Source: Ignavibacteriota bacterium (lineage in GTDB: Bacteria; Bacteroidota; Ignavibacteria; UBA10030; UBA6906). From it: 64,000 nt of DNA. This document shows positions 18,261-33,630 of the stretch, piece by piece (positions within the stretch are counted from its first letter, which is position 1; every line of letters begins with the position of its first letter). The notes below the pieces were generated by a model, which was given only the letters and a program-made list of their open reading frames with translations, was not told the origin of the DNA and searched no databases. The translations under genes were made by a program, and so were the position numbers. The stretch spans positions 13,758 through 77,757 of the forward strand of contig PMJR01000120.1 in the NCBI GenBank assembly GCA_003158475.1, given 5' to 3'.

Positions 18261-19153
18261 ACGCCCCCTGCGCTTCGCACCGGCTCTGCTTCGCCGTGAT
18301 GGCTGTTGCTGTGACAGCGTGCACCGCTGCCGCACAGACGCCCCGGGGTACACTCTTTATCATCGGCGGCGGACACCGCACCACCGAGATGATGCGCCAG
18401 TTTGTGGACCTGGCAGGTGGACCCGGGAAGGCGAGACTGGTCGTGATTCCGAACGCCTCGGCTGACGGTGACACATCCTGCCGGGACATGGCAGAAGAGT
18501 TCCGTGCGCTCGGCGTCAGGACCGTGGACTGTTGTCTGCTGACGCACGAACAAGCGTCGGATCCCCGCTCTGCCGGGCAGCTTGACGGGGCGACCGGGGT
18601 CTACTTTACCGGCGGGGACCAGGTGCTCGTGACCAGGGCACTGGTCGGAACACCGGTGCACAGGAAGCTGCTGGAGTTGTATCGGGCGGGAGCAGTGATG
18701 GGGGGAACGAGTGCCGGCGCCGCCCTGATGAGCAAGGTGATGATAACGGGGGATGAGAAACTCAACAAGGATACGGTCAATGCATTCGTCTTTATAAAGA
18801 AGGACAACGTTGTTACGGTCGAGGGGATGGGTTTCCTGACGAACGCGATCATCGATCAGCATTTTGTCAGGCGGAAACGGCACAACCGGCTGATCAGCGT
18901 GGTCCTGGAGCACCCGGACCTCATCGGCGTCGGAATCGACGAAGCCACAGCGATCGTCGTTCGTGAAGGCGAACTCTTTGACGTGATCGGCCGCGGAAGC
19001 GTTGTGGTGTACGACGCGACCCGTGCAACGGGGATCAGGACCGACAGCCGGGGAAATCTGTCGGCGGAGGGCCTCTCGATGCATATACTTACCGCGGGGG
19101 ATTCGTATGAGATGAATTCGCACACCGTTCGCCCTGCGGAGGATGCCCGATGA
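18257..19153 (+). CDS. cphB: Cyanophycinase (peptidase S51, CphB/CphE-like), lipoprotein/secreted
   Basis: Collinear CphB motifs: FIIGGG, VIPNASADG, YFTGGDQVLV, GGTSAGAALM (Ser nucleophile), IDQHFVRRKRHNRLISVV...GIDEATA. Signal with lipobox VTAC. 4-nt overlap with the M20 gene. Confidence 0.8.
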   Translation: MNAPCASHRLCFAVMAVAVTACTAAAQTPRGTLFIIGGGHRTTEMMRQFVDLAGGPGKARLVVIPNASADGDTSCRDMAEEFRALGVRTVDCCLLTHEQASDPRSAGQLDGATGVYFTGGDQVLVTRALVGTPVHRKLLELYRAGAVMGGTSAGAALMSKVMITGDEKLNKDTVNAFVFIKKDNVVTVEGMGFLTNAIIDQHFVRRKRHNRLISVVLEHPDLIGVGIDEATAIVVREGELFDVIGRGSVVVYDATRATGIRTDSRGNLSAEGLSMHILTAGDSYEMNSHTVRPAEDAR

Positions 19154-20541
19154 AGGCGCGGCTTTCATTCAACACGCTCCTGATCGTCTATGGTGTCGTC
19201 CTGCTCGTCGCGCTGGCGACATGGATCGTGCCCGGGGGTGAATACCGTCGGGAAGTCAAAGACGGGAAGACTCTTGTCGTGCCCGGATCATTTGTCTACG
19301 GCGAGAGCCGGCCCCAGGGGCCTGGCGCGGTGCTTGCGGCGCCGCTCAGGGGATTCGTCGAGGCCGCAAACATTATCGCATTTCTGTTCGTCATTGGCGG
19401 ATCTTTCATGGTGATCCAGAGGACCGGGGCGATCACGGTGTCGCTTCATCGCATGGCCCTTGTGTTCGCCCGGAAGCCGCACCTTCAGAAATACTTCATC
19501 CCCGTGACCATGGTGATATTTGCGCTGGCAGGGGGACTTTTCGGCATGTGCGAGGAGACCATGCCGTTCGTGCTGATATTCATACCGCTTTCTCTCTCCC
19601 TCGGTTACGATTCACTTGTCGGCACGGCGATTCCGTTTCTGGGGGCCGCCGCAGGGTTTGCCGGGTCAGTCTTCAATCCCTTCACCGTCGGCATCGCCCA
19701 GCACATCGCCGAGCTCCCCCTCTATTCGGGGTACGAATACCGGATCGTCATCTGGGTGATCAGTACGGTCTCCATGGTCACATTCGTGATGCTGCATGCA
19801 GCCAGGGTCAGGAAGCAGCCGGAGCGGAGCCCGGTTTTTGATCTGGATCAGGAACGGAGGCGGACGCTCGAGCTTGAAGCCCGGGATGACCAGCAGATGA
19901 CACCGGGGCACAAGCTTGTCCTGGGAGCGTTCATGCTGACGCTCGTCCTCCTCGTTTACGGCGTCCTCCGCCACGGCTGGTACATCACGGAGATTGGTGC
20001 ACTGTTCCTCGGGCTCGGGCTTTTCGCCGGTCCGCTCGGCGGCCTGTCTCTGGCAAAATCGGCGGATGCTTTCAAGGAGGGTGCCCGCGACATGACGGGG
20101 GTCGCTCTTATTATCGGGTGCGCGCGCGCAATTCTCGTCGTTGCCGGCGACGGCAGGATCATTGATGTGCTCCTCTACTCGGTTGCGAGCACCATCGCCG
20201 GCCTTCACCCCATCCTCGCGTCGCAGGCCATGTTCGTCGCGCAGGGGGTTATCAACTTTTTCGTCCATTCCGGGTCGGGCCAGGCGGCCCTGACGATGCC
20301 TGTGATGGCTCCGCTGGCGGACGTCGTGGGGATCTCCCGGCAGACGGCGGTCCTGGCATTTCAGTTCGGGGAGGGATGGATCAATCCCATTCTCCCCACC
20401 TCCGGCGTCACGATGGGCGTGCTCGGGCTTGCGGGGATCTCCTGGGACCGCTGGTTCAGATGGATGCTCCCGGTGCAGGTGTATTTTTTCGTTCTCGCGC
20501 TTGTGTTGTTGATACCACCCTTTCTGTTTCATTACCACTAG
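19150..20541 (+). CDS. YfcC/DcuC-like family membrane transporter (putative basic amino acid/dipeptide carrier)
   Basis: 463 aa polytopic membrane protein. Overlaps the cyanophycinase stop by 4 nt. Confidence 0.7.
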   Translation: MKARLSFNTLLIVYGVVLLVALATWIVPGGEYRREVKDGKTLVVPGSFVYGESRPQGPGAVLAAPLRGFVEAANIIAFLFVIGGSFMVIQRTGAITVSLHRMALVFARKPHLQKYFIPVTMVIFALAGGLFGMCEETMPFVLIFIPLSLSLGYDSLVGTAIPFLGAAAGFAGSVFNPFTVGIAQHIAELPLYSGYEYRIVIWVISTVSMVTFVMLHAARVRKQPERSPVFDLDQERRRTLELEARDDQQMTPGHKLVLGAFMLTLVLLVYGVLRHGWYITEIGALFLGLGLFAGPLGGLSLAKSADAFKEGARDMTGVALIIGCARAILVVAGDGRIIDVLLYSVASTIAGLHPILASQAMFVAQGVINFFVHSGSGQAALTMPVMAPLADVVGISRQTAVLAFQFGEGWINPILPTSGVTMGVLGLAGISWDRWFRWMLPVQVYFFVLALVLLIPPFLFHYH

Positions 20542-20578: not shown

Positions 20579-21715
20579 ATGAAACGATTCATTGCTACCG
20601 CGGCGGTTGTCCTGGCGCTGCTCTCATGCGACTACGCGCATGCGCAGGTGTACGGCCAGGGAAACGGGTTCGGCTACAGCCTGAACAAATACGGACGTGT
20701 CCGCATCTATACGCCAGACACGAACGGGACCACCCAATTGAACCGGGCGTCCATTCTTCTGGCGCTCAGCAAGACGAACGTGGGCGATTATACGGAAGAT
20801 GCCAACGCCGTGTCCGGACCGGCAATCACAGCCGACGGTCCCAGCCCCCGGACTGCGACGGTCCTGTTCGACAATTCGTACAATCTCCAGCAGCCAAAGG
20901 CCAAGGTCCGCCTGTCGACCTACACATGGCCGAACGATGCGTTTCTGATCGCCCGCTACACCGTTATCAATGATACGACAATCAGCTATCCCCTCTACCT
21001 GGGGCTTGCGGTGTCGCCCGAGCCCGGCGGGACATACGGCGGCGAGACCGTGACTTATGACGCCACAAAAAAAGTCGCTTACTTCTTCGTGTCGGGGACC
21101 GCGATGTACATGGGGGTCAAGCTGGTGAGCGGTTCACCCTATTCTTTCCACGTGCTTGACTATGGCGTGTATTCGCCGTCAGATCCAAGTTCCGACGCCG
21201 CCGACGATTCGACACGATACAATATGACAGCGCTTCCCGGATTCGATAATTCGCTCACGGTCGGCGCGAACGGATCGATCTACAATCTGAACGTCGGCGC
21301 GGTGACGATCGCCCACGGTGACTCCTCGACGTTCAGCGTCGCCTACGTCTGGGGGACCACGTTGAGCGCCATGCAGGCCGCGGCTGATTCGGCCGATGCG
21401 CGCTACAAGAAGGTGTTCACATCGATCCTGCAGACATCTCAGGCCGTTCCTCAGAGGACATCGCTCCTTCAGAACTACCCGAATCCCTTCAACCCGGCGA
21501 CCCTGATTGAGTTCCAGCTCCATCACGCAGGGGAAGTGTCGTTGAGAGTCTATGACGTCCTCGGGCGGGAAGTCGCCGTGCTTGCGAACGGCACGCTGAA
21601 TGCAGGGACGTACCGCGTCCCCTTCGACGGGCGCCAGCTTGCAAGCGGCATCTACTACTACAGGCTCGTCGCAGGTTCATTCACCGACTCGAAGCGCATG
21701 TTGCTCGTGAAATAA
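20579..21715 (+). CDS. Secreted hypothetical protein with T9SS (Por) C-terminal sorting domain
   Basis: Signal peptide. C-terminal LQNYPNPFNPATLIEFQL...GIYYYRLVAGSFTDSKRMLLVK. Confidence 0.7.
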   Translation: MKRFIATAAVVLALLSCDYAHAQVYGQGNGFGYSLNKYGRVRIYTPDTNGTTQLNRASILLALSKTNVGDYTEDANAVSGPAITADGPSPRTATVLFDNSYNLQQPKAKVRLSTYTWPNDAFLIARYTVINDTTISYPLYLGLAVSPEPGGTYGGETVTYDATKKVAYFFVSGTAMYMGVKLVSGSPYSFHVLDYGVYSPSDPSSDAADDSTRYNMTALPGFDNSLTVGANGSIYNLNVGAVTIAHGDSSTFSVAYVWGTTLSAMQAAADSADARYKKVFTSILQTSQAVPQRTSLLQNYPNPFNPATLIEFQLHHAGEVSLRVYDVLGREVAVLANGTLNAGTYRVPFDGRQLASGIYYYRLVAGSFTDSKRMLLVK

Positions 21716-21718
21716 CCG

Positions 21719-22609
21719 ATGAAACGGGCAGGCGGGAACGGGGCAGAGGAGCGGCGCGGATCGCCGGACCTGGAAGCACTCATCCAGCGGAAGTACCCCG
21801 AGCTTCCGGAGAACCAGCGCAAAGTGGCTGATTTTCTCGTCCAGCATATCCGCGAGGCGCCGTTTCTCTCCGTCATGGAGATCGAAGACCGAAGCGGGGC
21901 CAGCAAGGCGACTGTCGTCAGGCTGGCCCAGAGCCTCGGGTTCTCGGGCTTCCTCGAAATGCGCGGGAAGCTTATAAAACGCGTTCAGTCCCAGATGCGG
22001 ATTACGGAGATGTTTCCCCTGCTCCCGCGGACGAGCCGAGAGGAAACGCTCACGGCGGTCGCCGACCAGGATGTCAGGAACATCAACGAGACGATCAACC
22101 AGCTGGACCGGAAGGTCTTCGCGGACGTTGCACGGATGATTCTCAGTGCCGCGCGCGTGTATACGCTCGGCCTGGGAATCTCCTCGCTCATGGCCAGGAT
22201 CCTCGCGTACTCGCTCAGCCAGGTGGCGATCCGGTCGACGTCGCTCGTGCATGACTATGAGACCTTCATCGAACAGATCCACCAGTTCGACCGCTCGGAT
22301 CTGATCATCGCGTTCTCGTTCCCTCCGTATTCGAAGGAGACGATCGAGGTTGCCAGGGCGGCCGCAAAGAGGAAAACAACGATCGTCGCGGTAACCGACA
22401 GGGTGACATCCCCTGTGAGCGTGTACGCCGCACGCGTGCTCCCTGTCGTCAGCCAGAACATGCTGTTCACAAATTCTTTCTCCGCCATTTCCGTTATAAT
22501 TAATGCCCTCACCACGGAGGTCGCTCTCCTGAACAAGGCGAAAGCATTGAAGAACCTGAGGGAGTGCGAGAGACTGCTCGAACGAACGGGACACTACTAC
22601 GCAGGGTAG
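21719..22609 (+). CDS. RpiR/MurR family transcriptional regulator (HTH plus SIS domain)
   Basis: HTH (FLSVMEIEDRSGASKATVVRLAQSLGFSG) and a SIS sugar-isomerase fold region. The antisense 330-aa ORF was rejected. Confidence 0.8.
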   Translation: MKRAGGNGAEERRGSPDLEALIQRKYPELPENQRKVADFLVQHIREAPFLSVMEIEDRSGASKATVVRLAQSLGFSGFLEMRGKLIKRVQSQMRITEMFPLLPRTSREETLTAVADQDVRNINETINQLDRKVFADVARMILSAARVYTLGLGISSLMARILAYSLSQVAIRSTSLVHDYETFIEQIHQFDRSDLIIAFSFPPYSKETIEVARAAAKRKTTIVAVTDRVTSPVSVYAARVLPVVSQNMLFTNSFSAISVIINALTTEVALLNKAKALKNLRECERLLERTGHYYAG

Positions 22610-22619
22610 AGGAATCGCC

Positions 22620-25082
22620 ATGAAACCAACCCTTTGCCTTTTCCTGGTCCTCCTCGCGGGGGCCGGCACGCTGATTGCGGGAACAACAGGGAAGATCAGC
22701 GGTCACATCACGGACGCAGGAAGCGGTGAATCACTTGTCGGTGCAAACATGGCCCTCGTCGGCGCGCCGCTCGGGGCGTCGACGGGCACCGACGGGACCT
22801 ATGTCATACTGAACATCCCGCCGGGAACGTACGATCTGCGGGTGACGCTCGTGGGCTACGGCCCCACGCTGATCAAGGGTGTGCGGATCGTGGCCGACCA
22901 GACGACGACACTTGACGCGAAGCTCGAGGTTGCAGCGGTGGGACTGGCGGAGGTGGTGATCCAGGCCGAGCGGCCGATGGTACAGAAGGACGCGACGGCC
23001 ACAATCGCCGTCATCAACAGCGAACAGATCAAGATGATGCCGGTGAAGGACTTCGTGGAGGTGCTCCAGATGCAGTCGGGTGTGGTGGCTGACGGCAGGA
23101 ACCTCTATGTGCGGGGGGGCCGCTCGAACGAAGTTGCCTATCTCATCGACGGCATGTACGTCAAGGACCCGGTCCTGGGGACTTCGGGGACGAGGATCCA
23201 CAACGAAGCCATTTCGGAGCTGGTGTTTCTCGACGGGTCGTTCAATGCCGAGTACGGGAATGCGCTCAGCGGAGTTGTCAACATCGTGACGAAGGAGGGG
23301 GGGAAGGACTTTACAGGGTTGCTCGAAGGCCGCACGAGTGAATTCGGCATCAGTCCTTACAATCAATACCGGGAGGACCGGGTCGCGGCATTGATCAGCG
23401 GCCCGATTGCGGGTGATAACCTGAACTTCTTTGCAAGCGGCGAACGGGACGCCCGGGGAAGCTGGCTCCCCTTCGGCTACGACCGGACACTCTCCTTCAT
23501 CGGGAAAGTCAGCGGAACACTCATTCCCGGGTTTAAGACAACCCTGACGGGGAGGTACAGCGCGAACGACAACCGGCCGTACGATCAGAGCTGGAAATAC
23601 ATCGGCAATCAATACCTGAAGGTCCGGGAAAAGAGCAGGCAGACTCTCCTCACTGTCACACACACGGTTCTTCCGAATCTTTTCTACGACGTGCGGTTGT
23701 CGTATTTTAACCAGTCGTACTATTCGGGGATCGACAAGGATACCTCGCAGTATCTCTCCACGGGGAGCCGGCAGTACTTCCGGAACGCCGGGCTGGGGAC
23801 CGAGTTCTATTCCCTGGCGGATCCGGTTGAAGTCACCGATAACCGGACGGAGACGTTCAACGTCCGGGGAGACCTCACCTGGCAGATCGGGCGCAATAAC
23901 GAGGTACGCACGGGTTTCGACTTCAAGAAACACAACCTTTCCTATTTCGACGTCTACGATCCCAAGCGGGTCGCTCCGTATGTCACGGATTTCGACAAAC
24001 ACCCGGTCGAGGGGGCGGCCTACATCCAGGACAAGATCGAAATGAGCTCGCTCGTCGTCAGCCTCGGGCTCCGGTTCGATTATGCCGATCAAAGGGCGCC
24101 CTTCCGGAGCAACCCTCTCGACCCCGCATCGATCGTCCCCTCGAAGGCGAAGACACAGTGGAGTCCGCGTCTCGGCGTCGCCCACCCGATAAGCGACCGG
24201 ACGGCACTCCACTTCTCGTACGGACATTTCTTTCAGAATCCCGACTACGAGCGCCTGTATGAAAATTCGCAGTATGACGTCCACGTCAACCAGCCGATCT
24301 TCGGCCAGCCGGATCTCAATGCCGAGAGGACGACGGAATACGAGGTGGGCATCACGCATCAGTTCAGCCCGACATTTACCGCCTCTTTTACCGCCTATTA
24401 CAAGGATATTACCGGCCTCATAGGAACGATGTATTACCCGCCGTTCCAGGATGGGAGATATGTCGGCTACTACCTGTACGTCAATGAGGCATATGCCAAC
24501 GACAAGGGTTTTGAGACCCGCCTGACCATGCGAAGGTCGAAGTATCTGGCGGGATCGCTCACGTATACCTACTCGGTGGCGAAAGGGAGCGCATCGTCCG
24601 AGCTGGAGAACTATCCCAGTACGACGCAATCCACGCTTCTGTACCCGCTGAATCAGGACAGGACGCATCTCCTGAACGCCAACGTCAGCGTGATGTTCCC
24701 CGCCGACGACGGCCCTTCCATGTTCGGATCGTATCCTCTGGAAAACACGTACTGGAACGTGATCATCCGCGTCAACAGCGGGGCGCCGTACACGCCATCG
24801 AGCAGACGCAGCAGCTTCATCCCGATCAATTCCGCCCGCATGCCGACGACGTACTCCATCGATCTCGAATTCGGAAAATCGTGGAAGTTCGGCCAGTTTG
24901 GGTTCGAACCGTTCGTGGAAATTCTCAACCTTACGGACCACAAAAATGTCCTGTATGTCTGGCCGGACACCGGCGAACCCGACGTCACATTTGATACCGC
25001 CCACTCGACAGAATACCTCCAGGACCCGAGTAACTACGGGCCCCCGCGGCGAATCCGGATCGGCGCACGGCTGACGCTGTGA
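22620..25082 (+). CDS. TonB-dependent receptor-like OM protein with N-terminal carboxypeptidase-regulatory-like domain and plug
   Basis: Signal peptide. CarbopepD_reg-like (ISGHITDAGSGESLVGANMAL...TYDLRVTLVGY). Plug (NLYVRGGRSNEVAYLIDGMYV). Long beta-barrel. Confidence 0.75.
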   Translation: MKPTLCLFLVLLAGAGTLIAGTTGKISGHITDAGSGESLVGANMALVGAPLGASTGTDGTYVILNIPPGTYDLRVTLVGYGPTLIKGVRIVADQTTTLDAKLEVAAVGLAEVVIQAERPMVQKDATATIAVINSEQIKMMPVKDFVEVLQMQSGVVADGRNLYVRGGRSNEVAYLIDGMYVKDPVLGTSGTRIHNEAISELVFLDGSFNAEYGNALSGVVNIVTKEGGKDFTGLLEGRTSEFGISPYNQYREDRVAALISGPIAGDNLNFFASGERDARGSWLPFGYDRTLSFIGKVSGTLIPGFKTTLTGRYSANDNRPYDQSWKYIGNQYLKVREKSRQTLLTVTHTVLPNLFYDVRLSYFNQSYYSGIDKDTSQYLSTGSRQYFRNAGLGTEFYSLADPVEVTDNRTETFNVRGDLTWQIGRNNEVRTGFDFKKHNLSYFDVYDPKRVAPYVTDFDKHPVEGAAYIQDKIEMSSLVVSLGLRFDYADQRAPFRSNPLDPASIVPSKAKTQWSPRLGVAHPISDRTALHFSYGHFFQNPDYERLYENSQYDVHVNQPIFGQPDLNAERTTEYEVGITHQFSPTFTASFTAYYKDITGLIGTMYYPPFQDGRYVGYYLYVNEAYANDKGFETRLTMRRSKYLAGSLTYTYSVAKGSASSELENYPSTTQSTLLYPLNQDRTHLLNANVSVMFPADDGPSMFGSYPLENTYWNVIIRVNSGAPYTPSSRRSSFIPINSARMPTTYSIDLEFGKSWKFGQFGFEPFVEILNLTDHKNVLYVWPDTGEPDVTFDTAHSTEYLQDPSNYGPPRRIRIGARLTL

Positions 25083-25144
25083 GCCACGCACGCGGTGTTC
25101 GACCGTCAGCGGCTTCATCCCCAGGCGCGAAAGGACAATCAATC

Positions 25145-27676
25145 ATGACAATGAGCTCTCACGGAAGATCCAGTGCCGCGATCGCACGCTGCGCCCTGTG
25201 TCTCGTGTGGTGCCTGGCCTTCACTCCGGGGCGCGCAGACGCACAGGAGAAGAAAAACAGGAAGGAGGACGAGAGGCCCCTGACGGTGCAGAAGTCCTCC
25301 GACATACTCGACCGCGCAGGCGGGGCGCATACGAAGAGCAACATCGGCTCCTATTTCGTGAACAGGGGAAAACTCTACGCATCGGACTACTCGCAGGGTC
25401 CGACGTTCGAGTGGCCGATCGGATCCACGCATGAGTTCGTCTACCGGGCGAACCCCTACGTCGGCATTCCGGGCAACGTGGTCCAGGGTAGGTTCTACAG
25501 CCACTCGGAATGGGAGGCGGCGGCCGGATACAACAACCGCGATAGCGCACAACCGGCATTCAGCGACAGGCCCTACACGTGGCCGGCAGGCGGATGGCCG
25601 GTGAAGGACGCGTCCGGGAAGCCTGTTTTTGTCTCGAACCAGGACAGCTACTGCGTGTACAACGATTCGCTGAACACCGTGGGGATACTCAACCTTCAGA
25701 TAAACCAGACCGGCTATGCCTTCAGCCAGAAGAACGTTCGTGACATGGTCATCTACATTTTCGATGTCACGAACCGGTCGACCCGGACCTACGACAGTGT
25801 CTACTTCGGCGTCTATGCCGATATCTCCTGCGGTGGATCCGACAAGGTGCAGGATTACGGGCACCGCCGGATGGTGTTCGATAAGTCGCTGAACCGGCTC
25901 TACCTGTACAAGCCCAGCGGTGTCTCGTTTCAGTGGAATGGCGCGCCGAGCGGCTACTTCGGAGTGATTCTGATGCAAACGCCAAAGGTCAACGGCACAC
26001 AACTCGGTATCACCGACTGGCATTATAATCACTATGCGGATGATCAGGACCAGGACTGGGTGCAGTACGGTACACTCTCCAGTTCGCCGGCCCTTTTTAC
26101 AGACATACTCGGCCCGAAGTTCTTCCACCCCGGGGCGAACGCCCCCGATCTTCACTATGACGACCCGGCGACGATCCCGGCGGACGGCGATGATATCGTT
26201 TCCACGATGGGATCGGGTCCGTACAGGCTTGCACCCGGTGATACGCTCAGGTTCATCACTGCGTGGGTGGCGGCGGGAACGGCGTCCGATATGGACCAGA
26301 TTACCTCCAATGCGTACAAACTGCTGGCGCAGGAGTTCGTCACTTCGAAACCCCCCGGGGCTCCGAAGGTGACGGCTGTTCCCGGGGACAGGAAGGTCCT
26401 CCTGACGTGGGACAACACGGCGGAGAGCTCGCGTGACATTTTCACGAACGCGGTCAACTTCGAAGGGTACCACCTGTACAAGAGCGTCGACAAGGGGCAG
26501 CACTGGGATCAGATCGATCGGAACTCCGTGGCAATCGGTCCGGACCCTGTTCCGCTTGCATCCTTTGACAAAATCGACGGCATGGGAAAGGAGACCGGCC
26601 TCCAGTACAGCTTCATCGATTCGAATGTGACGAACGGATTTGAATACTGGTATTCGGTAACGGGATACACGGTGCCGGATGCAGACAATGCTGTCCTGGA
26701 AACTCCCCTTGGACGCGCGGGGGATAACAATGTGGGAGTCGCGGTCCCCCGATCCACGGCAACAGCCCGAACACCTGTCGGGACGACCCCGGTGCAGAAG
26801 ACCGGGACCGGAACGGCAAACGTCCTCTTCCGCGTCACTGCGCTTGATATCCCTCCGGCAGGCGGACTCACGTACGACGTAAGCTTCGCGCCCGCTGCAA
26901 CCCTGGAGCAAGGCAACCCGCGGATGACGGTGCAGGTCGGCATCGATTCCGTCGGGTTGCGGACCTCGGAGACATACAGCCTCGCGTTTGCCTCGCCGAC
27001 GCAGTTCGTGCTGCGAAATCTGACCGAGAAGACGGTCCTCATCGCGTCCGGCACATTGACATCGGGTGCGCCAATCCTCTTTGAAGGGATCCGTCTGACC
27101 GTGACGGTGGCCTCCGCGTCCCCGGCGGATCTTCCCAAACAGGGGGATTCGCTCGTGGTGTGCCCCGGCGTGAAGGTCGACGTCACGGGGCAGCAGAATG
27201 TCCTGCCGCTGCAGCCGTTTGAGTACGGGACCGCCTATGCCACGTCCAACGGCGTGGTGTTCTCGATCACGCCGGCCGACACGTTCGCGCAAAGCCGGAT
27301 CACGTACCGGGACCGTTACAGCTTCACGACAACCGCAGCCGCGCTGAGTCCCGCCGCGACCACTGACGACCTGGGGAAAATCAAGGTGGTGCCGAACCCG
27401 TACATCGTGTCTTCCCGGTACGAGCAGGAATTTGGGATTCTTCGCAAAGAGCCGCTCCGGCAACTCAAGTTCAACAACCTGCCGGCGAAATGCACGATCT
27501 ATATCTTCTCCCTGGCAGGCGACAAGGTCCAGACCATTGAGCACTACAGCGACAATGGCACGGAAACATGGGACATGCGCACGGCGGGGAACCGTGAGAT
27601 CGCCCCCGGGGTGTACATCTACCTCGTGAAGACGGATACAGCCGAGAAGACCGGCCGCTTTGCGGTGATCAAATAG
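25145..27676 (+). CDS. Large secreted protein (about 840 aa) with FN3-like module and T9SS-type C-terminal beta-sandwich domain
   Basis: RBS aaagga plus ATG 25145. Signal AAIARCALCLVWCLAFTPGRADAQ. FN3-like PGAPKVTAVPGDRKVLLTWDNT. C-terminal KIKVVPNPYIV...GVYIYLVKTDTAEKTGRFAVIK. Confidence 0.65.
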   Translation: MTMSSHGRSSAAIARCALCLVWCLAFTPGRADAQEKKNRKEDERPLTVQKSSDILDRAGGAHTKSNIGSYFVNRGKLYASDYSQGPTFEWPIGSTHEFVYRANPYVGIPGNVVQGRFYSHSEWEAAAGYNNRDSAQPAFSDRPYTWPAGGWPVKDASGKPVFVSNQDSYCVYNDSLNTVGILNLQINQTGYAFSQKNVRDMVIYIFDVTNRSTRTYDSVYFGVYADISCGGSDKVQDYGHRRMVFDKSLNRLYLYKPSGVSFQWNGAPSGYFGVILMQTPKVNGTQLGITDWHYNHYADDQDQDWVQYGTLSSSPALFTDILGPKFFHPGANAPDLHYDDPATIPADGDDIVSTMGSGPYRLAPGDTLRFITAWVAAGTASDMDQITSNAYKLLAQEFVTSKPPGAPKVTAVPGDRKVLLTWDNTAESSRDIFTNAVNFEGYHLYKSVDKGQHWDQIDRNSVAIGPDPVPLASFDKIDGMGKETGLQYSFIDSNVTNGFEYWYSVTGYTVPDADNAVLETPLGRAGDNNVGVAVPRSTATARTPVGTTPVQKTGTGTANVLFRVTALDIPPAGGLTYDVSFAPAATLEQGNPRMTVQVGIDSVGLRTSETYSLAFASPTQFVLRNLTEKTVLIASGTLTSGAPILFEGIRLTVTVASASPADLPKQGDSLVVCPGVKVDVTGQQNVLPLQPFEYGTAYATSNGVVFSITPADTFAQSRITYRDRYSFTTTAAALSPAATTDDLGKIKVVPNPYIVSSRYEQEFGILRKEPLRQLKFNNLPAKCTIYIFSLAGDKVQTIEHYSDNGTETWDMRTAGNREIAPGVYIYLVKTDTAEKTGRFAVIK

Positions 27677-27680
27677 GAGG

Positions 27681-28685
27681 ATGGCCATGAAGAGAGTGAT
27701 TCTTCTTGCCCTCGCGATCGCACTCTGCCAGGTTCAAACGAGAGCGCAGAATCCGAATATCGGGACAGCAGGAGCACAGTTCCTGAAAATCCCGGTCGGT
27801 CCCCGGGCGGCGGCCATGGCCGGCGCGTTCGTGTCCAACACCGATGACGCGTCTTCACTCTTCTGGAACCCGGCCGGGATCGTCGGCGTGAAATCCGGCG
27901 CGCTGTTTGCCGCGCATACCGACTGGTGGGAAACGATCAAGCTGAACCACGCCGCGCTTGTGGAGTCGTTCGAGGACATCGGCTCATTCGGCGTCTCCGT
28001 CACGGTGCTTTCGATGGGCGAAATGGAGGTCACGACCGAAGATCAACCTGAGGGGACCGGCCAGTCATTCGACGCACAGGACGTGATGATCGGCGTCAGC
28101 TATGCCCGGAGGCTGACAAATGAATTCAGCGTCGGCATCACTGCGAAGTACGTGCAGCAGCGGATCTGGAACGAATCGGCGAGCGCCATCGCGTTTGATA
28201 TCGGGACCCAGTACCGCATCGGGTTCCGGGATCTGACCATCGGCATGAGCATGATGAATTTCGGCGGCAACATGACGTACGCCGGTCCGGACCTCGGGGT
28301 CAAATACACCGTGGACCCGAACAATGCCGGCGTGCGTCTTGCACCGGCCAATCTTGCCCCGGATGACTATCCACTCCCCCTTCATTTCCAGGTCGGGGTT
28401 TCGATGTCTCCGTATACCAGCGAGAACTTTTCGATGCTGCTTGCGGTCGATGTTGCGCACCCGAACGACAACCAGGAGGAGGTGAATGTCGGGACGGAGT
28501 TGACCATTCTCCGCCAGTTCTTCCTCCGCGGGGGGTACCGGTTCGGGTACGACATCGAGAAGGCAACGTTCGGTGCCGGCGTGGCTCTCCCGCTCGGCGG
28601 CCTCAACCTGACCGTCGACTACGCCTATGCGATGTACAACCTGCTTCCCAACATCAGCCGGATCTCGGTCGGCATGGCGTTCTGA
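27681..28685 (+). CDS. PorV/PorQ family (T9SS-associated FadL-like OM protein)
   Basis: Signal peptide. N-terminal GTAGAQFLKIPVGPRAAAMAGAFVSNTDDASSLFWNPAGI signature. Ends MAF. Confidence 0.6.
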   Translation: MAMKRVILLALAIALCQVQTRAQNPNIGTAGAQFLKIPVGPRAAAMAGAFVSNTDDASSLFWNPAGIVGVKSGALFAAHTDWWETIKLNHAALVESFEDIGSFGVSVTVLSMGEMEVTTEDQPEGTGQSFDAQDVMIGVSYARRLTNEFSVGITAKYVQQRIWNESASAIAFDIGTQYRIGFRDLTIGMSMMNFGGNMTYAGPDLGVKYTVDPNNAGVRLAPANLAPDDYPLPLHFQVGVSMSPYTSENFSMLLAVDVAHPNDNQEEVNVGTELTILRQFFLRGGYRFGYDIEKATFGAGVALPLGGLNLTVDYAYAMYNLLPNISRISVGMAF

Positions 28686-30697
28686 TGCGCACCGCCTTAC
28701 GTGTTGCGGCGGCCCTGGCACTCTTCGTGCGCCCGGGCTTTGGCCAGGGATCCGTGCTTCTGGTCGGCGGCGGAAGCGAGAATTACAACGACTGGTCGGA
28801 TGCCCCGTATCGCTGGCTTGTGCAGCACGCGCCTAACGGTCATATCCTCGTTCTCCATTACTCCACCGCCTCGACTTTTCTCCCCGCGTATTTCCAGTGG
28901 CTGGGGGCGACCTCGGCGACAAACCTCATCATCCCGTCGGCCGCCACGGCGAATGATACGAACACCGCGAACGCGATTCTCGCCTGCGACGGGATCTTCC
29001 TGCGCGGAGGGGACCAGTGGCAGTATATCTCACTCTGGAGGGGGACGCTCGCCGAGACGGCACTCCGGCAGGTCTTCCAGCGGGGAGGTGTGATCGGAGG
29101 GACCAGCGCGGGGATGGCCGTTCTGAGCCAGGTGATTTTTGACGCGCGCAACACCTCCGTCGATCCACGCGACGCGCTGAGAGATCCTCTTTCCTCGGGG
29201 ATCACATTTACAGAGAACTTCCTCGGGTTTGTCCCCGGGGTCCTTGGCGACACGCATTTCTTTGAGCGCGGGCGCCTGGGCAGGCTGATGGCAATGCTCT
29301 CCGTCTACAGGGAGCGCAACGGCCGGTGGATCACCGGTGTCGGAGTCGATTACAGCACAGCGCTTGCGATCGACATGAGCGGGGATGCCCGGGTCATGGG
29401 GGCCGGGACGGTGACAGTTTTGCGCGGGACTGCCGGGACAACCTACTCGATCGCGCCCGGCAACCCGTTGGCCATGTCGAATCTTCGGATGGACATGCTG
29501 ACGCCCGGCTACCAGATCAATCTTTCCAGCGGCGAGATCCGGCCTCCCTCAGGTGCGCTTCCATTCTCACCGAACGAGGTGCACTGCGTTGCCTCGCCAC
29601 TTATACTGGACGGGAGCGGATCGGCGGCACTCTGGACAGGCGCGACAGGGAGTCTGAATCATTTCGTAGCGGCGCTCTCATCGCCGGCGGATACCGTCGG
29701 GGTGATCTCCCGGGCCGGGTCCACATCAGGCTCGGCGAGCGTTGGCGCTTTTCTGGATGCGAGGGGGGTCGCCTGGCGCGCACTCGGTGTCAGCGACGGG
29801 ACGAAGAACGACCCTGCCCTGGCCGCGCTGTGCCACGGGTGCAGGGGGTTCGTCTTCGTCAGCAACAGTGCGGAGAGTCTTGCGGGTTTCTTCACGTCGA
29901 CGCTTCTGGGTGCTTCGTTCGCGGCCCAACTCCAGAACAACTCCCCGGCCCTGATGCTCTCCGGCGACTGTGCTCTGGCCGCAGACAGCGCCGTCGGGAG
30001 TATCGGGGCAGATGCCGATGGCGCCTACTACGGCACACTGACACGCCTGAAGGGGCTCGGCATCGCCCGAGGAATTGAAATCATGCCGCGTCTCTATGAT
30101 GACGCGGACTCGATCGACAATCGCTTCAGCGGTCTTTTCTGGGGAATGGGGAGGTCGAGAGCGGCGTACGGCCTCCTCCTGGACGGGGGAACTTCAGCAC
30201 AGGTAAGCTCTGCAGGGCTTCTGAGCATCTCCGGGACGACCCCGGCAATCGTGGTCGACGCCCGCGGGGTCACCTCGCTCGACTTTCCATCATTCCGCGC
30301 CAATGTGAGGTCCAATCCACGTGTGGGTGCCGCGCTGGTAGGCGCCGTGATCCATGTCGTCCGCGACGCGCAGACATTCGATCTCGCCTCCGGCGAAATC
30401 CTCGGCGTGCGCACTGTCCGGCCGGCCCCTCCGGAGGATTTCTTCCTCTCGCAGAGTTATCCGAATCCCTTTAACCCGGCGACCCGTCTCCAGTTCCGCA
30501 TCGCACGGCATCAACCGGTTCGCCTGATCGTCTACGACCTCACAGGGAAGGAGATCGCGACGCTCCTGGATGGACCGGTGGATCCCGGGACGTACACTGT
30601 GACCTTCGACGGGAGCGGACTCGCCAGCGGCGTGTATTTCTGCCGGCTCCTCTCTCCGCCTTTCGCACAAACCCGAAAACTCGTCCTGATCCGATGA
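28685..30697 (+). CDS. Secreted tandem peptidase-S51 (cyanophycinase-like) protein with T9SS C-terminal sorting domain
   Basis: Domain 1: LLVGGGSE, FLRGGDQWQY, GGTSAGMAVL, HFFERGRLGRLMAML, paralleling CphB. Second degenerate S51-like half. C-terminal SQSYPNPFNPATRLQF...GVYFCRL. Confidence 0.75.
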   Translation: MRTALRVAAALALFVRPGFGQGSVLLVGGGSENYNDWSDAPYRWLVQHAPNGHILVLHYSTASTFLPAYFQWLGATSATNLIIPSAATANDTNTANAILACDGIFLRGGDQWQYISLWRGTLAETALRQVFQRGGVIGGTSAGMAVLSQVIFDARNTSVDPRDALRDPLSSGITFTENFLGFVPGVLGDTHFFERGRLGRLMAMLSVYRERNGRWITGVGVDYSTALAIDMSGDARVMGAGTVTVLRGTAGTTYSIAPGNPLAMSNLRMDMLTPGYQINLSSGEIRPPSGALPFSPNEVHCVASPLILDGSGSAALWTGATGSLNHFVAALSSPADTVGVISRAGSTSGSASVGAFLDARGVAWRALGVSDGTKNDPALAALCHGCRGFVFVSNSAESLAGFFTSTLLGASFAAQLQNNSPALMLSGDCALAADSAVGSIGADADGAYYGTLTRLKGLGIARGIEIMPRLYDDADSIDNRFSGLFWGMGRSRAAYGLLLDGGTSAQVSSAGLLSISGTTPAIVVDARGVTSLDFPSFRANVRSNPRVGAALVGAVIHVVRDAQTFDLASGEILGVRTVRPAPPEDFFLSQSYPNPFNPATRLQFRIARHQPVRLIVYDLTGKEIATLLDGPVDPGTYTVTFDGSGLASGVYFCRLLSPPFAQTRKLVLIR

Positions 30698-32196
30698 AAG
30701 CTCCCGCACGGTCCGTCGTCCGATCCACAGGTCTCTGCGCACTCCTGTTGCTTCTCGCGCTTCCAGTTCGCCCGCAACCACGATTACAATCCCCCGTCGA
30801 ACGTTCCGGTTTCGAACGGCTGACCTCCTACGACACGCTGCAGGCGTTTCTGGAAACCCTGGACGGGAGGGGACATTGCACGGTCAGGCGTATTGCGCAG
30901 ACGCACAAGGGGCGGAGTGTGTCGTCAGTTCTCGTCACTTCCTCCCCCCGTTTCGGCGAGGATACGTTGAAGCTGCGCGTGATGCTCTTCGCACAGCAGC
31001 ATGGGGACGAGCCCTCGGGAAAAGAAGCACTGACACTCCTCCTTGCACGGATTGCCGGGCTCGACCTGGACCGGATTCTCTCGCGGATTGACCTGATCAT
31101 CGTCCCCCAGATGAACCCCGACGGTTCGGAACTCCGCCAGCGGCGCACCGCGGATGACGTCGACCTCAACCGCAATCATCTCCTGCTGACTTCGCCTGAA
31201 ACACGCGGGCTCCACGATCTCTTTGACACCTGGTGGCCCGAGGTGACGATGGACATTCATGAGTACGGGCCGAACAGCCGGGCCTGGAGCGATTCCGGTT
31301 TCGTGAAGTCCGTCGACGTCCAGCTTGGCATGCTGACCAATCTCAACTCGTCCGGGGCGCTCCGCGTGTATGAGAGGGGTTCGGCCTTCCCCTTTGTCGA
31401 TTCGACGATGCAGAAGTGCGGCTACTCGTTCCATGAATACATTGTCGGCTCGCCGGAGGATTTCATCCGTTACAGCACGACGGAGCCCAATGACGGGCGG
31501 CAGAGTTTCGGGATACTGAACACGCTCTCGTTCATTCAGGAAGGACGCGGCGGCACGGAGCTTGAGGATGGTCTGGAACGGCGCGCCAGGTCACAGTGTG
31601 CTTCCATCGAGGCGCTGCTGGCTTTCTGTGCCGGCCGGTCCGCGGAGATCCGCACTCTCGTAGCCCGTGAACGCCGGGCGCTGGTCGCGGGTCGGGGACT
31701 GCCGGTCGTTCTCTGCATGGACCATTTCGTCGGGGGGAGGAAGATGATCATCCCCGTCCGGCGCGTACCCTCGGGACGGGATACGCTCTGGCAGGTGCAT
31801 CCGCTTCACGACCAGGTGAAGCCCCTCTGCACGCGCTCCCTCCCGTCCGGCTACATCATTCCGGGAGAACTCACCGGCATCAGGGAGATTCTCGACCGCC
31901 ACCACGTGCAGCGGGAGATCGTTGTCGGTTCGCGGCGGGTGGATGCCGTCGCCTACATAATCGAGAGCGTGCAACCCGACACCCTGGAGGGGGAGTGGCA
32001 TCCCAGGCCGTCACTCCGGGCCGAAAAAGTCAAAAGGGTTCTGCGTACGGGAGATATCGTCGTGCGTACGGATCAAACCCGTTCGCTCTTCCTGGGGATT
32101 CTCCTGGAGCCCGAATCGATGTGGGGGCTCGTCAAGTACGACGGCTTCAGTTCACTGCTCCAGGGGAGGGAGTATCCGATACTCAGGATCCCGTGA
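30694..32196 (+). CDS. Secreted M14 family zinc carboxypeptidase (MpaA / gamma-D-Glu-diamino acid peptidase-like)
   Basis: Signal peptide. HGDEPSG (HxxE zinc ligands), NRNH, DIHEY. 4-nt overlap with the upstream gene. Confidence 0.75.
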   Translation: MKAPARSVVRSTGLCALLLLLALPVRPQPRLQSPVERSGFERLTSYDTLQAFLETLDGRGHCTVRRIAQTHKGRSVSSVLVTSSPRFGEDTLKLRVMLFAQQHGDEPSGKEALTLLLARIAGLDLDRILSRIDLIIVPQMNPDGSELRQRRTADDVDLNRNHLLLTSPETRGLHDLFDTWWPEVTMDIHEYGPNSRAWSDSGFVKSVDVQLGMLTNLNSSGALRVYERGSAFPFVDSTMQKCGYSFHEYIVGSPEDFIRYSTTEPNDGRQSFGILNTLSFIQEGRGGTELEDGLERRARSQCASIEALLAFCAGRSAEIRTLVARERRALVAGRGLPVVLCMDHFVGGRKMIIPVRRVPSGRDTLWQVHPLHDQVKPLCTRSLPSGYIIPGELTGIREILDRHHVQREIVVGSRRVDAVAYIIESVQPDTLEGEWHPRPSLRAEKVKRVLRTGDIVVRTDQTRSLFLGILLEPESMWGLVKYDGFSSLLQGREYPILRIP

Positions 32197-32226
32197 GCAG
32201 GCGGCAATGCATAGGAGGAGAATCCG

Positions 32227-33336
32227 ATGCGCATTAAGAGAATTGAATTGCGACACACGAAAATGGAGCTGGTGTCCCCGTTTGAAACCTCCCTGGGTGT
32301 GGAACTCTTCGAGGAACATATCATCGTGCGCGTGGACGGGGACGGCGTCACCGGTTGGGGGGAATGCGTCGTGGAACCGACACCCTCGTATTCTTACGAG
32401 ACGCTGCAGACCGCCTGGCATATATTGAAAGATTTCCTCATCCCGGGAATCCTGGGAAAAGAGATCACCGGCGTGGGGGACGCGCTTGCGCTGAACGCCT
32501 GGGTCAGGGGGCACCGGATGGCGCGGGCGGGACTCGAGGCGGCTCTGTCGGATGCCTTCGCCAGGGCCCGAGGGGTCTCCCTTTCGGCGTTCCTCGGCGG
32601 GACGCGTGTGCGCATACCCGTCGGCGTCAGTGTCGGTCTCCAAGCGACGCCGGCGGAGCTCCTTCGCGTGATCGGAGGCTACCTGGCGGACGGATACAAG
32701 CGGATCAAGATCAAGATTGCGCCGGGAAGGGATATCGCCCTCGTGCAGGCGGTCCGGAAAGAATTCCCGGATATCCAACTCCAGGTAGATGCAAACTCAG
32801 CGTTCACGCTGAACGATAGTGATATGCTCCGCTCGCTGGATGATTACAGCCTCCAGCTCGTCGAACAACCCCTTGGCTACGATGACATCTACGATCATTC
32901 CCTCCTGCAGAGGCAGATGAGGACGCCGATCTGCCTCGACGAGAGCATCTACAATCTCTCCGATACGCGTGCGGCGCTTGCGCTGGGGAGTTGCCGCATC
33001 ATCAATATCAAGCCGGGGCGCGTCGGGGGCTACACGGAGTCGATCAAGATTCACGACTTTTGCGCGTCGCAGAACGTACCCGTGTGGCACGGGGGGATGG
33101 ATGAATCGGGGATCGGACGGGCGGGCAATGTGGCGCTCGCCTCCCTTTCCAACTTCATGCTTCCGGGAGATATTTCAGCGACAAAGCGGTACTACAGGGA
33201 AGATATTGTCGAGCCGGCGTTCGAGGTGGACGCGGACGGAACGATGGCTGTGCCTACGAAGCCTGGCATCGGCGTCGATGTGATGATGGAGAGACTGGAG
33301 AGGGTTACCGTTCGAAAGGAAGAGTTCAGGATGTAG
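32227..33336 (+). CDS. Enolase-superfamily MLE-subgroup enzyme: dipeptide (L-Ala-D/L-Glu-type) epimerase / OSBS-like
   Basis: KIKIAPGRD, QVDANSAF, LVEQPL, ICLDES, IINIKPGRVGG, the metal-ligand and Lys-acid/base positions of MR/MLE enzymes. No signal peptide. Confidence 0.8.
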   Translation: MRIKRIELRHTKMELVSPFETSLGVELFEEHIIVRVDGDGVTGWGECVVEPTPSYSYETLQTAWHILKDFLIPGILGKEITGVGDALALNAWVRGHRMARAGLEAALSDAFARARGVSLSAFLGGTRVRIPVGVSVGLQATPAELLRVIGGYLADGYKRIKIKIAPGRDIALVQAVRKEFPDIQLQVDANSAFTLNDSDMLRSLDDYSLQLVEQPLGYDDIYDHSLLQRQMRTPICLDESIYNLSDTRAALALGSCRIINIKPGRVGGYTESIKIHDFCASQNVPVWHGGMDESGIGRAGNVALASLSNFMLPGDISATKRYYREDIVEPAFEVDADGTMAVPTKPGIGVDVMMERLERVTVRKEEFRM

Positions 33337-33630
33337 TTACGCAGGCCCCTGGGCCTTTACCTGTGGACGTGTCTTCGCCGCGACCTCCTGTGTGGCGCGG
33401 GGTCGGCGCGGTTTTTTTGAGCGTGGCGTCGGTGCTTTCTTTCCTCCTTTGCGGGGGGGCTTCGCCTTCCCGGCATTCCGTTCTATCGCCTTCATCGCTT
33501 TCCGCAGATGTTTATGGATGAACGACAGATCTTTCCTTCCCGCATCGCCCATCTTGGAACTCTTCTGATGTATCCCGGCGGCAAGACGGCCGATTTCCCT
33601 TTGCAATGCTGCCGATTTCGCTTTCGACAT
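33337..33630 (-). CDS. Small Lys/Arg/Pro-rich basic protein (histone H1-like DNA-binding protein)
   Basis: 97 aa, C-terminal KPPRKGGKKAPTPRSKKPRRPRA repeats. Convergent with the epimerase (its stop is adjacent to 33336). Confidence 0.45.
   Translation of the reverse strand: MSKAKSAALQREIGRLAAGIHQKSSKMGDAGRKDLSFIHKHLRKAMKAIERNAGKAKPPRKGGKKAPTPRSKKPRRPRATQEVAAKTRPQVKAQGPA

Follow-up and report, generated by a model that had tools for sequence, protein, structure and literature searches.

A conserved TonB-dependent, type IX secretion-linked locus in an Ignavibacteriota bacterium and its possible role in scavenging cyanophycin or a closely related isopeptide polymer

We analysed a stretch of 64,000 nucleotides (the window) from an Ignavibacteriota bacterium (GTDB lineage Bacteria; Bacteroidota; Ignavibacteria; UBA10030; UBA6906), taken from contig PMJR01000120.1 of assembly GCA_003158475.1, and describe here a row of 11 consecutive co-directional open reading frames (ORFs) on its + strand. 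The row spans positions 17007-33336, or 17151-33336 when the preferred start of the first gene is used, and encodes a TonB-dependent receptor (TBDR), cargos of the type IX secretion system (T9SS) and two cyanophycinase-like S51 proteins. Table 1 lists its genes, which were assigned to families using Pfam and NCBIfam models with their curated cutoffs. Family assignments and synteny agree that this is one conserved T9SS-linked TonB-dependent locus centred on cyanophycinase-like S51 enzymes. A preliminary description of this DNA had recognised the downstream seven of the 11 genes, an RpiR-family regulator and the six genes behind it (21719-33336), and had placed the start of the cluster at the regulator; four more co-directional genes, overlapping or nearly abutting, lie upstream of it (17151-21715).

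Table 1. Genes and signals of the locus and of its upstream neighbourhood. Positions are those of the window; scores are in bits, with model cutoffs given after 'vs'. CTD, C-terminal domain; PLP, pyridoxal phosphate.
Feature	Position	Strand	Family evidence or remarks
PLP enzyme (D-cysteine desulfhydrase/ACC deaminase family) and secreted HEAT/class C beta-lactamase-fold serine hydrolase	12700..15425	+	possible accessory pair
C45-family autoproteolytic acyltransferase/hydrolase	15453..16970	-	NF040521 125.8 vs 85; divergent from cluster; possible accessory
Promoter-like site TTGACA-17-TATACT	17068..17096	+	11/12 consensus match only; upstream of ATG 17151
M20 PepT-like metallopeptidase	17151..18260	+	Pfam M20 and M20_dimer; without signal peptide
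298-aa S51 cyanophycinase-family protein	18257..19153	+	TIGR02069; signal peptide
YfcC/DcuC-family inner-membrane carrier	19150..20541	+	PF03606 331.7
378-aa T9SS type A cargo	20579..21715	+	TIGR04183; signal peptide
RpiR/MurR-family regulator	21719..22609	+	HTH_6 and SIS
TonB-dependent receptor, non-SusC	22620..25082	+	CarboxypepD_reg, Plug and barrel
843-aa secreted multidomain protein	25145..27676	+	without Pfam domain above threshold; fold-level domains
PorV/PorQ-family outer-membrane beta-barrel	27681..28685	+	NF033709 221.6 vs 90
670-aa S51 and type A CTD cargo	28685..30697	+	S51 and TIGR04183
500-aa secreted M14 zinc carboxypeptidase	30694..32196	+	PF00246 46.5 vs 21.6
NSAR/OSBS-subfamily enolase-superfamily enzyme, cytoplasmic	32227..33336	+	TIGR01928 344.5
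GC-rich hairpin then U7, terminator-like	33368..33418	+	after last gene of row

Spacing along the row is tight (-4, -4, 37, 3, 10, 62, 4, -1, -4 and 30 nt in gene order, with preferred starts). The 298-aa S51 gene and the YfcC gene share 4 nt, the PorV/Q-like gene overlaps the gene of the 670-aa S51 protein with a CTD (S51-CTD) by 1 nt, and the latter overlaps the M14 gene by 4 nt; 10 nt separate the RpiR gene from the TBDR gene, 4 nt the 843-aa gene from the PorV/Q-like gene, and 30 nt the M14 gene from the enolase-superfamily gene. The six closely spaced co-directional genes of the preliminary description are present as it stated, except that its 4-nt overlap between the TBDR and 843-aa genes requires a GTG start at 25079; the ATG at 25145, which agrees with the start called for a homologue in another genome (L004; loci from other genomes carry the prefix L), leaves a gap of 62 nt. 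The mechanical ORF of the M20 gene opens at GTG 17007, and its homologues begin at the equivalent of ATG 17151. The C45 and M20 genes diverge, and the promoter-like site of Table 1 falls in the space between them. The hairpin behind the last gene is present in the minimum-free-energy fold, the energy of the region is no better than that of shuffled sequences (z -0.12), and a consensus scan for terminators did not list it; the counts of intrinsic terminators and promoters in that scan were at chance level, and neither the 17068 site nor the 33368 hairpin is statistically distinguished. The 11 genes probably form one transcript.

To place the row in a wider context, 30 homologues of the 670-aa protein were aligned and 75 loci were recovered from species-representative genomes, nearly all of them metagenome-assembled genomes (MAGs) labelled Ignavibacteria/Ignavibacteriota, Bacteroidota, Cytophagia or KSB1. 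The nearest of these loci, at 86-89% identity, come from fen and Bacteroidota MAGs. The window proteins were searched against all loci with tblastn, flanks being limited to 10 kb, and 53 loci (54 for the M14 count) had enough flank to be informative. The TBDR and 843-aa genes stand alongside the S51-CTD gene in 36 of the 53, in MAGs of Ignavibacteria, KSB1/Zhuqueibacter and Cytophagia and at 30-60% identity, so that the genes are syntenic and not scattered. Among these 36 core loci the PorV/Q-like gene was found in 33, the RpiR gene, directly upstream of the TBDR gene, in 32, the YfcC gene in 25 despite the flank limit, and the gene of the 378-aa cargo in 19, while the M20 and small S51 genes were found every time the flank extends far enough. 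In 10 genome loci, and likewise in L083, the M20 gene has the S51 gene as its neighbour; YfcC is kept at 47-89% identity, and gene order is identical in most related loci. Look-ups that started from the 670-aa, M14 and 843-aa proteins agree with the tblastn results. Since this synteny recurs in other genomes, the arrangement is not due to chance.

The same counts set the boundary of the core. The M14 gene lies downstream of the S51-CTD gene in only 15 of 54 loci, and the enolase-superfamily gene is present in six of those 15; close relatives have it together with the M14 gene, as do L072 (69% identity) and L082 (78%), and L059 has it nearby. We conclude from these counts that the conserved core is M20-S51-YfcC-(cargo)-RpiR-TBDR-843aa-PorV/Q-S51CTD, and that the M14 and enolase-superfamily genes, originally counted as parts of one locus, are lineage-specific accessories outside it. 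In L084, a metagenome contig, the locus is split into many short ORFs (TBDR, S51-CTD, M14), most likely through assembly frameshift errors and not through decay.

The smaller S51 protein, of 298 aa, passes the curated cyanophycinase equivalog model TIGR02069 (179.2 bits vs a cutoff of 126.6). When aligned to 3EN0 and 7UQV it retains GGDQ, GTSAG, DQH, R..R..R and IDE, and it keeps the equivalents of S132, H174, Q101, D172, Q173, R178, R180 and R183 of CphB (3EN0 chain numbering is native plus 20). Because it begins with a signal peptide, which has a possible lipobox (VTAC) and which its homologues in other loci share, it is predicted to be periplasmic.

Residues ~22-295 of the 670-aa protein form an active-looking S51 domain, a degenerate duplicate of this domain follows at ~300-575, and residues 588-668 are a type A CTD (TIGR04183 26.5 bits vs a cutoff of 23). 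Its AlphaFold2 model (pLDDT 89.4, pTM 0.80) has two alpha/beta domains (23-295 and 306-575) with the same order of secondary structure, followed by a beta-sandwich CTD. Foldseek matched the model to 7UQV and the CphB entries 7UQW and 3EN0 (TM 0.78-0.85, with 0.78-0.81 for the CphB structures), and then to PepE; the CTD matched T9SS CTD structures. In the first domain the CphB equivalents S141 (S132), H191 (H174), Q111 (Q101) and D189 (D172) are retained, as are the arginines of the pocket, R195 (R178), R197 (R180) and R200 (R183); across 30 homologues these residues show little or no variation, and S141, H191, Q111, R195, R197 and R200 show none. The position of Q173, kept in the 298-aa protein, is Thr or Ser in this family. 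His174 and Arg178 of CphB are reported to be required for binding of beta-(Asp-Arg)2 (PMC12661447). An hhalign comparison of the two halves was colinear over 243 columns (E 0.02, with an HH probability of just 2.4%) and set GTSAG and DTH of the first half opposite D..LAG and N.D of the second. The tandem S51 arrangement first proposed is therefore seen only at fold level, with Ser and His present in the first copy and no triad in the second, which lacks both. By these alignments the second domain is a catalytically dead duplicate, although it probably has a function, for instance in binding, because it has invariant residues of its own.

Further copies and neighbours of the S51-CTD gene were noted in individual genomes. 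The MAG MFD00032.bin.2.15 (L018, L020, L070) has at least three S51-CTD paralogues, some without the TBDR module nearby. In a 3.75-Mb Bacteroidetes MAG the S51-CTD gene is immediately preceded by an ArgD-like class III aminotransferase gene (L001 8650-9858, on a contig shared with L028); ArgD binds and stimulates the cyanophycinase CphB (PMC12661447, 2025).

Three genes of the core would provide inner-membrane transport, cytoplasmic hydrolysis and control. Table 1 shows that the S51 gene overlaps the YfcC gene in the same row as the TBDR gene, so that a cyanophycinase-family gene is clustered with transporters. With NF008611, the model of a 'putative basic amino acid antiporter YfcC', the carrier reaches 386 bits vs a cutoff of 500. 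The M20 protein scores 213 bits vs 274 with TIGR01883, its best PDB matches are the PepT-like 3GB0 and 3RZA, and it is, on sequence grounds, a candidate cytoplasmic hydrolase of an imported (iso)dipeptide. The RpiR protein matches its models far below the equivalog cutoffs.

The outer-membrane part of the locus centres on the TBDR, whose CarboxypepD-like N-terminus had been described correctly. It fails the SusC/RagA model TIGR04056 (65.1 bits vs 368), with a match confined to N-terminal residues 25-229, and no cluster protein matches a SusD/RagB-like family in Pfam or NCBIfam; the gene after the TBDR gene encodes the 843-aa beta-rich protein. A canonical SusC/SusD polysaccharide utilisation locus (PUL) was ruled out on these two grounds.

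Homologues of the 843-aa protein are all annotated as hypothetical. Its AlphaFold2 model is of moderate confidence (pLDDT 69.5), with the first ~100 residues poorly modelled, and indicates a supersandwich domain, FN3/Ig-like beta-sandwiches and a PorZ/PorU-like C-terminal beta-sandwich; Foldseek returned FN3 strings, a chain of the levan utilisome 8aa2 (prob 0.54), PorU and PorZ. The protein was initially listed as an 840-aa FN3 protein with a CTD. The FN3 domains appear at the fold level of this model and are not detected by Pfam, and the CTD stays below threshold (TIGR04183 18.6 vs 23; CHU_C 18 vs 27). It is the candidate surface binding protein of the locus.

The barrel encoded next to it is PorV/PorQ-like, as first stated. 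Since it misses the equivalog cutoffs of both PorQ (118.8 vs 220) and PorV (78.1 vs 250), it is by these scores a paralogue, closer to PorQ than to PorV, and not the core PorV or PorQ. Its gene is always downstream of the 843-aa gene. Pairs of a T9SS cargo and a barrel are known in PorZ-PorQ, from the attachment complex, and in SprB-SprF, and by analogy with these pairs the 843-aa protein may be anchored to the barrel as its cognate partner. In contrast to PorZ-PorQ, both proteins score under the equivalog cutoffs for PorZ, PorQ and PorV, and the putative pair always lies downstream of a TBDR gene, which favours nutrient capture over cargo attachment.

A profile search of 1.84 billion cluster representatives returned 855 relatives of the 843-aa protein at E<=1e-30. 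Distant members (27-29% identity) on four contigs (L085 2362-8430, L086 1-5351, L087 4624-12948, L088 2790-9923) are likewise encoded between a CarboxypepD_reg TBDR (31-36%) and a PorV/Q-like barrel (33-41%). The parts of these contigs that were examined, which are short (5-10 kb) for L085, L086 and L088, hold no S51, YfcC or M20 genes, and the genes downstream in L087 resemble dihydropyrimidine dehydrogenase, dihydropyrimidinase and an aminotransferase, as in pyrimidine catabolism. This suggests that the TBDR, the big CTD protein and the PorV/Q-like barrel form a substrate-independent capture module, and that the S51, YfcC and M20 genes would confer the specificity of the present locus.

The remaining core protein, the 378-aa cargo, has a signal peptide, an N-terminal domain of ~290 aa and a type A CTD (TIGR04183 39.3 vs 23). 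In the PDB, a profile of 16 homologues matched nothing but a T9SS CTD chain, so that no solved relative of the N-terminal domain was detected. Its gene is duplicated in some loci, as a tandem fusion of 645 aa in L083 (4701-6638) and as two adjacent copies in L072 (216-2700). Two further T9SS type A cargos, a GH16 beta-glucanase and a BNR/sortilin-repeat protein, are encoded downstream in the window (34486-35577 and 38320-40461), and a GH16 beta-glucanase gene also lies downstream of the locus in L004; evidently the organism leans heavily on T9SS for surface hydrolases.

The M14 protein has a signal peptide and is predicted to be periplasmic or secreted, as had been proposed. Among 30 homologues there is no variation at H103, E106, R150, N159, R160, H189, Y249 or E283, and since these include the Zn ligands (HxxE...H), the N-R pair for the substrate carboxylate and the catalytic Glu, the enzyme is predicted to be catalytically intact and should be active. 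Its family profile matches 4a37, 4b6z and 3k2k (CCP-like or unassigned M14) in the PDB, followed by CPD, CPM and CPN. Neither its sequence nor the profile found a CphZ, AstE or AspA chain there, a weak AstE_AspA_cat match (22.8 bits) is below the AstE/AspA threshold, and homology to CphZ was ruled out on this basis. CphZ of the CphZ/AotO system is an M14-clan enzyme that hydrolyses beta-Asp-Arg and is found with the Aot transporter (PMC9974463). The present locus resembles that system in clustering a zinc M14-type enzyme with a cyanophycinase and a basic-amino-acid-type transporter, but its M14 protein is secreted, is 500 aa long and misses the AstE/AspA threshold, which places it outside the CphZ subfamily; a functional analogy is possible. 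The Arg branches of cyanophycin all have a free alpha-carboxylate, so it is conceivable that the enzyme could remove residues of this kind, such as the Arg branches of fragments.

The last gene had been read as a dipeptide epimerase, and this assignment does not hold. The protein fails the dipeptide epimerase models (NF011708, 51.9 vs 343; NF041118, 80.5 vs 500) and passes TIGR01928 (344.5 vs 200.65); it matches the Amycolatopsis NSAR structure 1SJA at 354 bits, against 91-117 bits for dipeptide epimerase structures, and shares ~55% identity with Amycolatopsis NSAR, counted by eye on the alignment. That alignment includes KIKI, VDAN, VEQP, LDES and IKPGRVGG, in which K163/K263, D189/E214/D239 and R266 are retained. 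As judged from sequence, the gene belongs to the NSAR/OSBS subfamily, and its product may be an N-acyl amino acid racemase, a bifunctional enzyme or plain MenC. R266 does not discriminate between these, because it is conserved across the whole subfamily, in which function is assigned from context (PMC12006748).

That the gene provides the o-succinylbenzoate synthase (MenC) with which the organism makes menaquinone, and is functionally unrelated to the locus, is a serious possibility, if somewhat short of an even one. The menC_lowGC_arch model is passed, subfamily members can have OSBS as their sole biological function (PMC12006748), the gene is absent from most loci, and its 69-78% identity in L072 and L082, against 31-49% for its neighbours, is housekeeping-like. 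Its context argues the other way: no men-pathway family was matched among the ~37 proteins scanned across the window, and the gene stands 30 nt from the M14 gene with its own ribosome-binding-site-like AGGAGG and with the terminator-like hairpin after it. It adjoins the M14 gene also in L072 and L082, which are distant genomes, and in L059 (18633-21505, - strand) a homologue with 69% identity stands beside the gene of a 575-aa protein of Amidohydro_3, a family that includes D-aminoacylases. Published work assigns NSAR or bifunctional enzymes from contexts of this kind (PMC12006748). The enzyme could act on products of the beta-Asp-Arg type, because beta-Asp-Arg is formally amino-succinyl-arginine. 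To our knowledge, a context of M14 and S51 enzymes has not been described for the NSAR/OSBS subfamily. In score, catalytic residues, R266 and the lack of a men operon nearby, the gene is like the NSAR/OSBS genes of D-amino-acid conversion operons (Sakai 2006; Glasner laboratory), from which the locus differs in that the cluster has no GNAT succinyltransferase and the neighbours are secreted M14 and S51 enzymes.

Upstream of the cluster lie the PLP and HEAT-beta-lactamase pair and the divergent C45 gene (Table 1). The pair recurs beside the M14 and NSAR genes in L059 and L082, in differing orders and in three arrangements only, the window included; in L059 it is convergent with the NSAR/Amidohydro_3 pair, and a C45 homologue (55% identity) belongs to the L082 cluster. 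These neighbours hint at a D-amino-acid-oriented accessory module, and they are all that speaks for the idea, raised in the preliminary description, that the substrate contains D-residues.

From the gene order, families, catalytic residues, predicted compartments and synteny described above, we infer a substrate, a series of transport steps and a mode of anchoring. We hold with much more confidence that this is a conserved locus for capture, import and degradation; that it is a scavenging system for a beta-aspartyl isopeptide polymer, most probably cyanophycin or else a very close polymer, is the reading we favour, and we judge it somewhat more probable than not to be right. The 378-aa, 843-aa and 670-aa T9SS cargos would be exported to the cell surface, where the 843-aa protein, held on its own PorV/Q-like barrel beside the TBDR, would bind the polymer, and the surface S51 enzyme, with its active-looking domain and its dead, perhaps binding, duplicate, would cut it into fragments. 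After import of the fragments by the TBDR, the periplasmic 298-aa S51 enzyme, together with M14 where present, would trim them to dipeptides of the beta-Asp-Arg type. The YfcC/DcuC carrier would move these across the inner membrane, and the cytoplasmic PepT-like M20 enzyme would split them. Expression would be controlled by the RpiR protein encoded inside the row, and the periplasmic M14 and cytoplasmic NSAR/OSBS enzymes would be additions made in this lineage. The predicted compartments fit such a PUL-like relay, with a CTD on the large S51 protein, signal peptides on the small S51 and M14 proteins, and none on the M20 and NSAR/OSBS proteins.

Several observations weigh against cyanophycin as the substrate. 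The large S51 protein falls just below the cyanophycinase cutoff (TIGR02069, 117.0 vs 126.6), and at the position of Glu201, which we take to be the triad acid of CphB, just as we take the residues considered above to be those of its pocket, it has Tyr223 (Y/D/A/V across the family), preceded by an Asp222 that is conserved in 28 of 30 sequences; the small S51 protein retains IDE at this site. For both S51 proteins the best PDB match, by sequence and by fold, is 7UQV, deposited as 'Pseudobacteroides cellulosolvens pseudo-CphB', a protein that is reportedly like CphB in structure and inactive on cyanophycin; a literature search found no paper on the pseudo-CphB enzyme. In the alignment with the 298-aa protein, 7UQV too has the Ser, the His and all three Arg, and conservation of these residues is thus necessary but insufficient to specify the substrate. 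IadA, IaaA and CphZ were not found in the cluster, leaving the M20 and M14 proteins as the sole dipeptidase candidates, nor was any arginine- or aspartate-specific catabolic gene. Regulators of the RpiR/SIS type normally sense sugar phosphates, which is odd for a peptide polymer, and supersandwich domains such as the one in the 843-aa protein are familiar mainly from carbohydrate-active enzymes.

Much of this would suit the same machinery working on another substrate, in which 'pseudo-cyanophycinases' act on a different polyanionic or isopeptide polymer, or on a peptide pool, such as poly-gamma-glutamate, polyaspartate-like material or peptides with D-residues, and the M14, NSAR/OSBS, beta-lactamase-fold and PLP enzymes form a module for products that contain D-amino acids. 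Besides the 7UQV match, the unconserved Glu201 position, the sugar-phosphate type of regulator and the supersandwich domain, this reading draws on the M14/NSAR genes with PALP and HEAT-beta-lactamase genes in three arrangements (window, L059, L082), on the Amidohydro_3 gene adjoining NSAR in L059, and on the CCP-like nature of the closest solved relatives of M14, a group that trims acidic and isopeptide-linked Glu. We consider it unlikely but far from negligible, given that the small S51 protein passes the curated cyanophycinase equivalog model, that the full Arg pocket of CphB is invariant in 30 homologues, and that no poly-gamma-glutamate hydrolase family (GGT, NlpC/P60 PgdS) turned up among the scanned genes. 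The D-amino-acid genes, being absent from most loci, cannot define the core substrate. Scavenging of peptidoglycan stem peptides or muropeptides, with M14 as MpaA, the enolase-superfamily protein as L-Ala-D/L-Glu epimerase, M20 as a PepD-like dipeptidase and a MurR-like regulator, we regard as highly improbable. Formally, an M14 enzyme, a racemase of the MLE subgroup and an M20 enzyme recall the murein-peptide route of E. coli, MpaA-YcjG-PepD; the regulator belongs to the RpiR/MurR family (69 bits with NF012026, MurR), and the upstream beta-lactamase-fold protein has an AmpH-like match (NF007943, 66 bits). At family level, however, the MpaA/YcjG analogy was ruled out: M14 reaches 23.4 bits vs 157 with the MpaA model NF007897 and its profile finds no MpaA chain in the PDB, matching CCP-like proteins and then CPD/CPM/CPN instead, and the last protein fails the epimerase models and is of the NSAR/OSBS subfamily. 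Both genes are missing from most syntenic loci, the regulator matches are all far below equivalog cutoffs, and the cluster has no amidase, lytic transglycosylase, NagZ, MurQ, LdcA or sugar kinase. Of the two substrates first suggested, cyanophycin is the better fit, and it is strengthened by the upstream genes of the model-passing periplasmic S51 protein, the YfcC-type carrier and the M20 enzyme.

Taken further, the cyanophycin reading leads to a broader and rather doubtful proposal, in which a CarboxypepD_reg TBDR, a supersandwich/FN3 CTD protein of ~850-1000 aa and a PorV/Q-like barrel would make up a general and hitherto unrecognised SusD-independent module with which T9SS-bearing bacteria capture nutrients, its secreted binder tethered to its own PorQ-like barrel beside the transporter. 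Here the module would be directed to a cyanophycin-type polymer, the M20 enzyme would be the missing beta-Asp-Arg dipeptidase of lineages related to Bacteroidota, and M14 and NSAR/OSBS would deal with branches and with N-acyl or isopeptide products that bear D-residues.

The locus can be compared with several known systems. It shares with SusC/SusD PULs and RagAB the logic of a surface enzyme and binder, a TonB importer with a CarboxypepD_reg domain, trimming in the periplasm, a carrier in the inner membrane and a regulator encoded in the locus itself, and is unlike them in having no SusD/RagB-like gene, the partners of the TBDR being T9SS cargos and a PorV/Q-like barrel. With the cyanophycinases CphB and CphE its S51 proteins share the fold, the GTSAG elbow, the His, GGDQ and the R178/R180/R183 pocket. 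The large enzyme differs from both in joining an active-looking and a dead S51 domain to a T9SS CTD, and from CphB in the replacement of Glu201, the change of Q173 to Thr/Ser and a score just under the family cutoff. A locus of the Bacteroidetes isolate Salinivirga cyanobacteriivorans L21-Spi-D4 is reportedly homologous to PULs. It was proposed as a 'cyanophycin utilization locus', with iadA, by Ben Hania 2017, as cited in PMC10206079, and clusters of cyanophycinase, dipeptidase and transporter genes in genomes without cphA1 have been interpreted as scavenging loci (Sharon et al. 2023, PMC10206079). A plain S51 protein is paired with an S51 protein bearing a Por secretion domain in Salinivirga and Cyclonatronum (PMC6243061).

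The concept of a scavenging locus is therefore already known from the 2017 proposal and from the S51 pairing, so far as these sources describe them, and the initial claim of novelty was too strong. The present locus is like these clusters in combining cyanophycinase genes with a dipeptidase and transporters in polymer scavengers, not makers, and like Salinivirga in its plain and Por/T9SS-type S51 proteins. Set against the published description of the Salinivirga locus, it has an M20 PepT-like enzyme in the dipeptidase position in place of IadA, IaaA or CphZ, a non-SusC TBDR with an 843-aa CTD protein and a PorV/Q-like barrel and no SusD, and, in addition, RpiR, M14 and NSAR/OSBS genes. A literature search found no paper that combines cyanophycinase with type IX secretion. 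What looks new is the SusD-less module of TBDR, CTD protein and PorV/Q-like barrel, the tandem active/dead S51 cargo, the M20 enzyme in the dipeptidase position, the embedded RpiR gene and the M14 and NSAR/OSBS add-on.

Elsewhere in the window, a 571-aa ORF on the - strand (9467-11182) has a partial match to the DmsE-family decahaem cytochromes (53 bits, below cutoff). Downstream lie a branched-chain amino acid biosynthesis row (40804-53300) with genes of dihydroxy-acid dehydratase, acetolactate synthase, isopropylmalate synthase, an aconitase-type isomerase subunit and ketol-acid reductoisomerase, and a DAHP synthase gene inside it, and the gene of a 790-aa PA, M28 and TFR_dimer protein with the architecture of glutamate carboxypeptidase II (56357-58729).

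Cyanophycin is a widespread nitrogen-rich storage polymer; secreted CphE enzymes and one genome-based proposal in a Bacteroidetes isolate are all that is known of its capture by non-producers. Against this background the locus is, as a reading of sequence, a solid computational lead with prior art. The isoaspartyl dipeptidase of Bacteroidota has been stated to be undiscovered (Sharon et al. 2023, PMC10206079), and the PepT-like M20 enzyme, possibly also M14, is a concrete candidate for it. The locus further directs attention to an outer-membrane uptake module that is as yet uncharacterised and whose big CTD protein family accounts for the 855 relatives counted above. Because the nearest solved S51 relative was deposited as a 'pseudo-CphB', annotations of 'cyanophycinase' in this clade may hide another substrate. 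Loci of this type are common in MAGs of Ignavibacteria, KSB1 and Cytophagia, the closest relatives coming from fen-labelled isolates, which suggests that these groups regularly scavenge cyanophycin or a related polymer.

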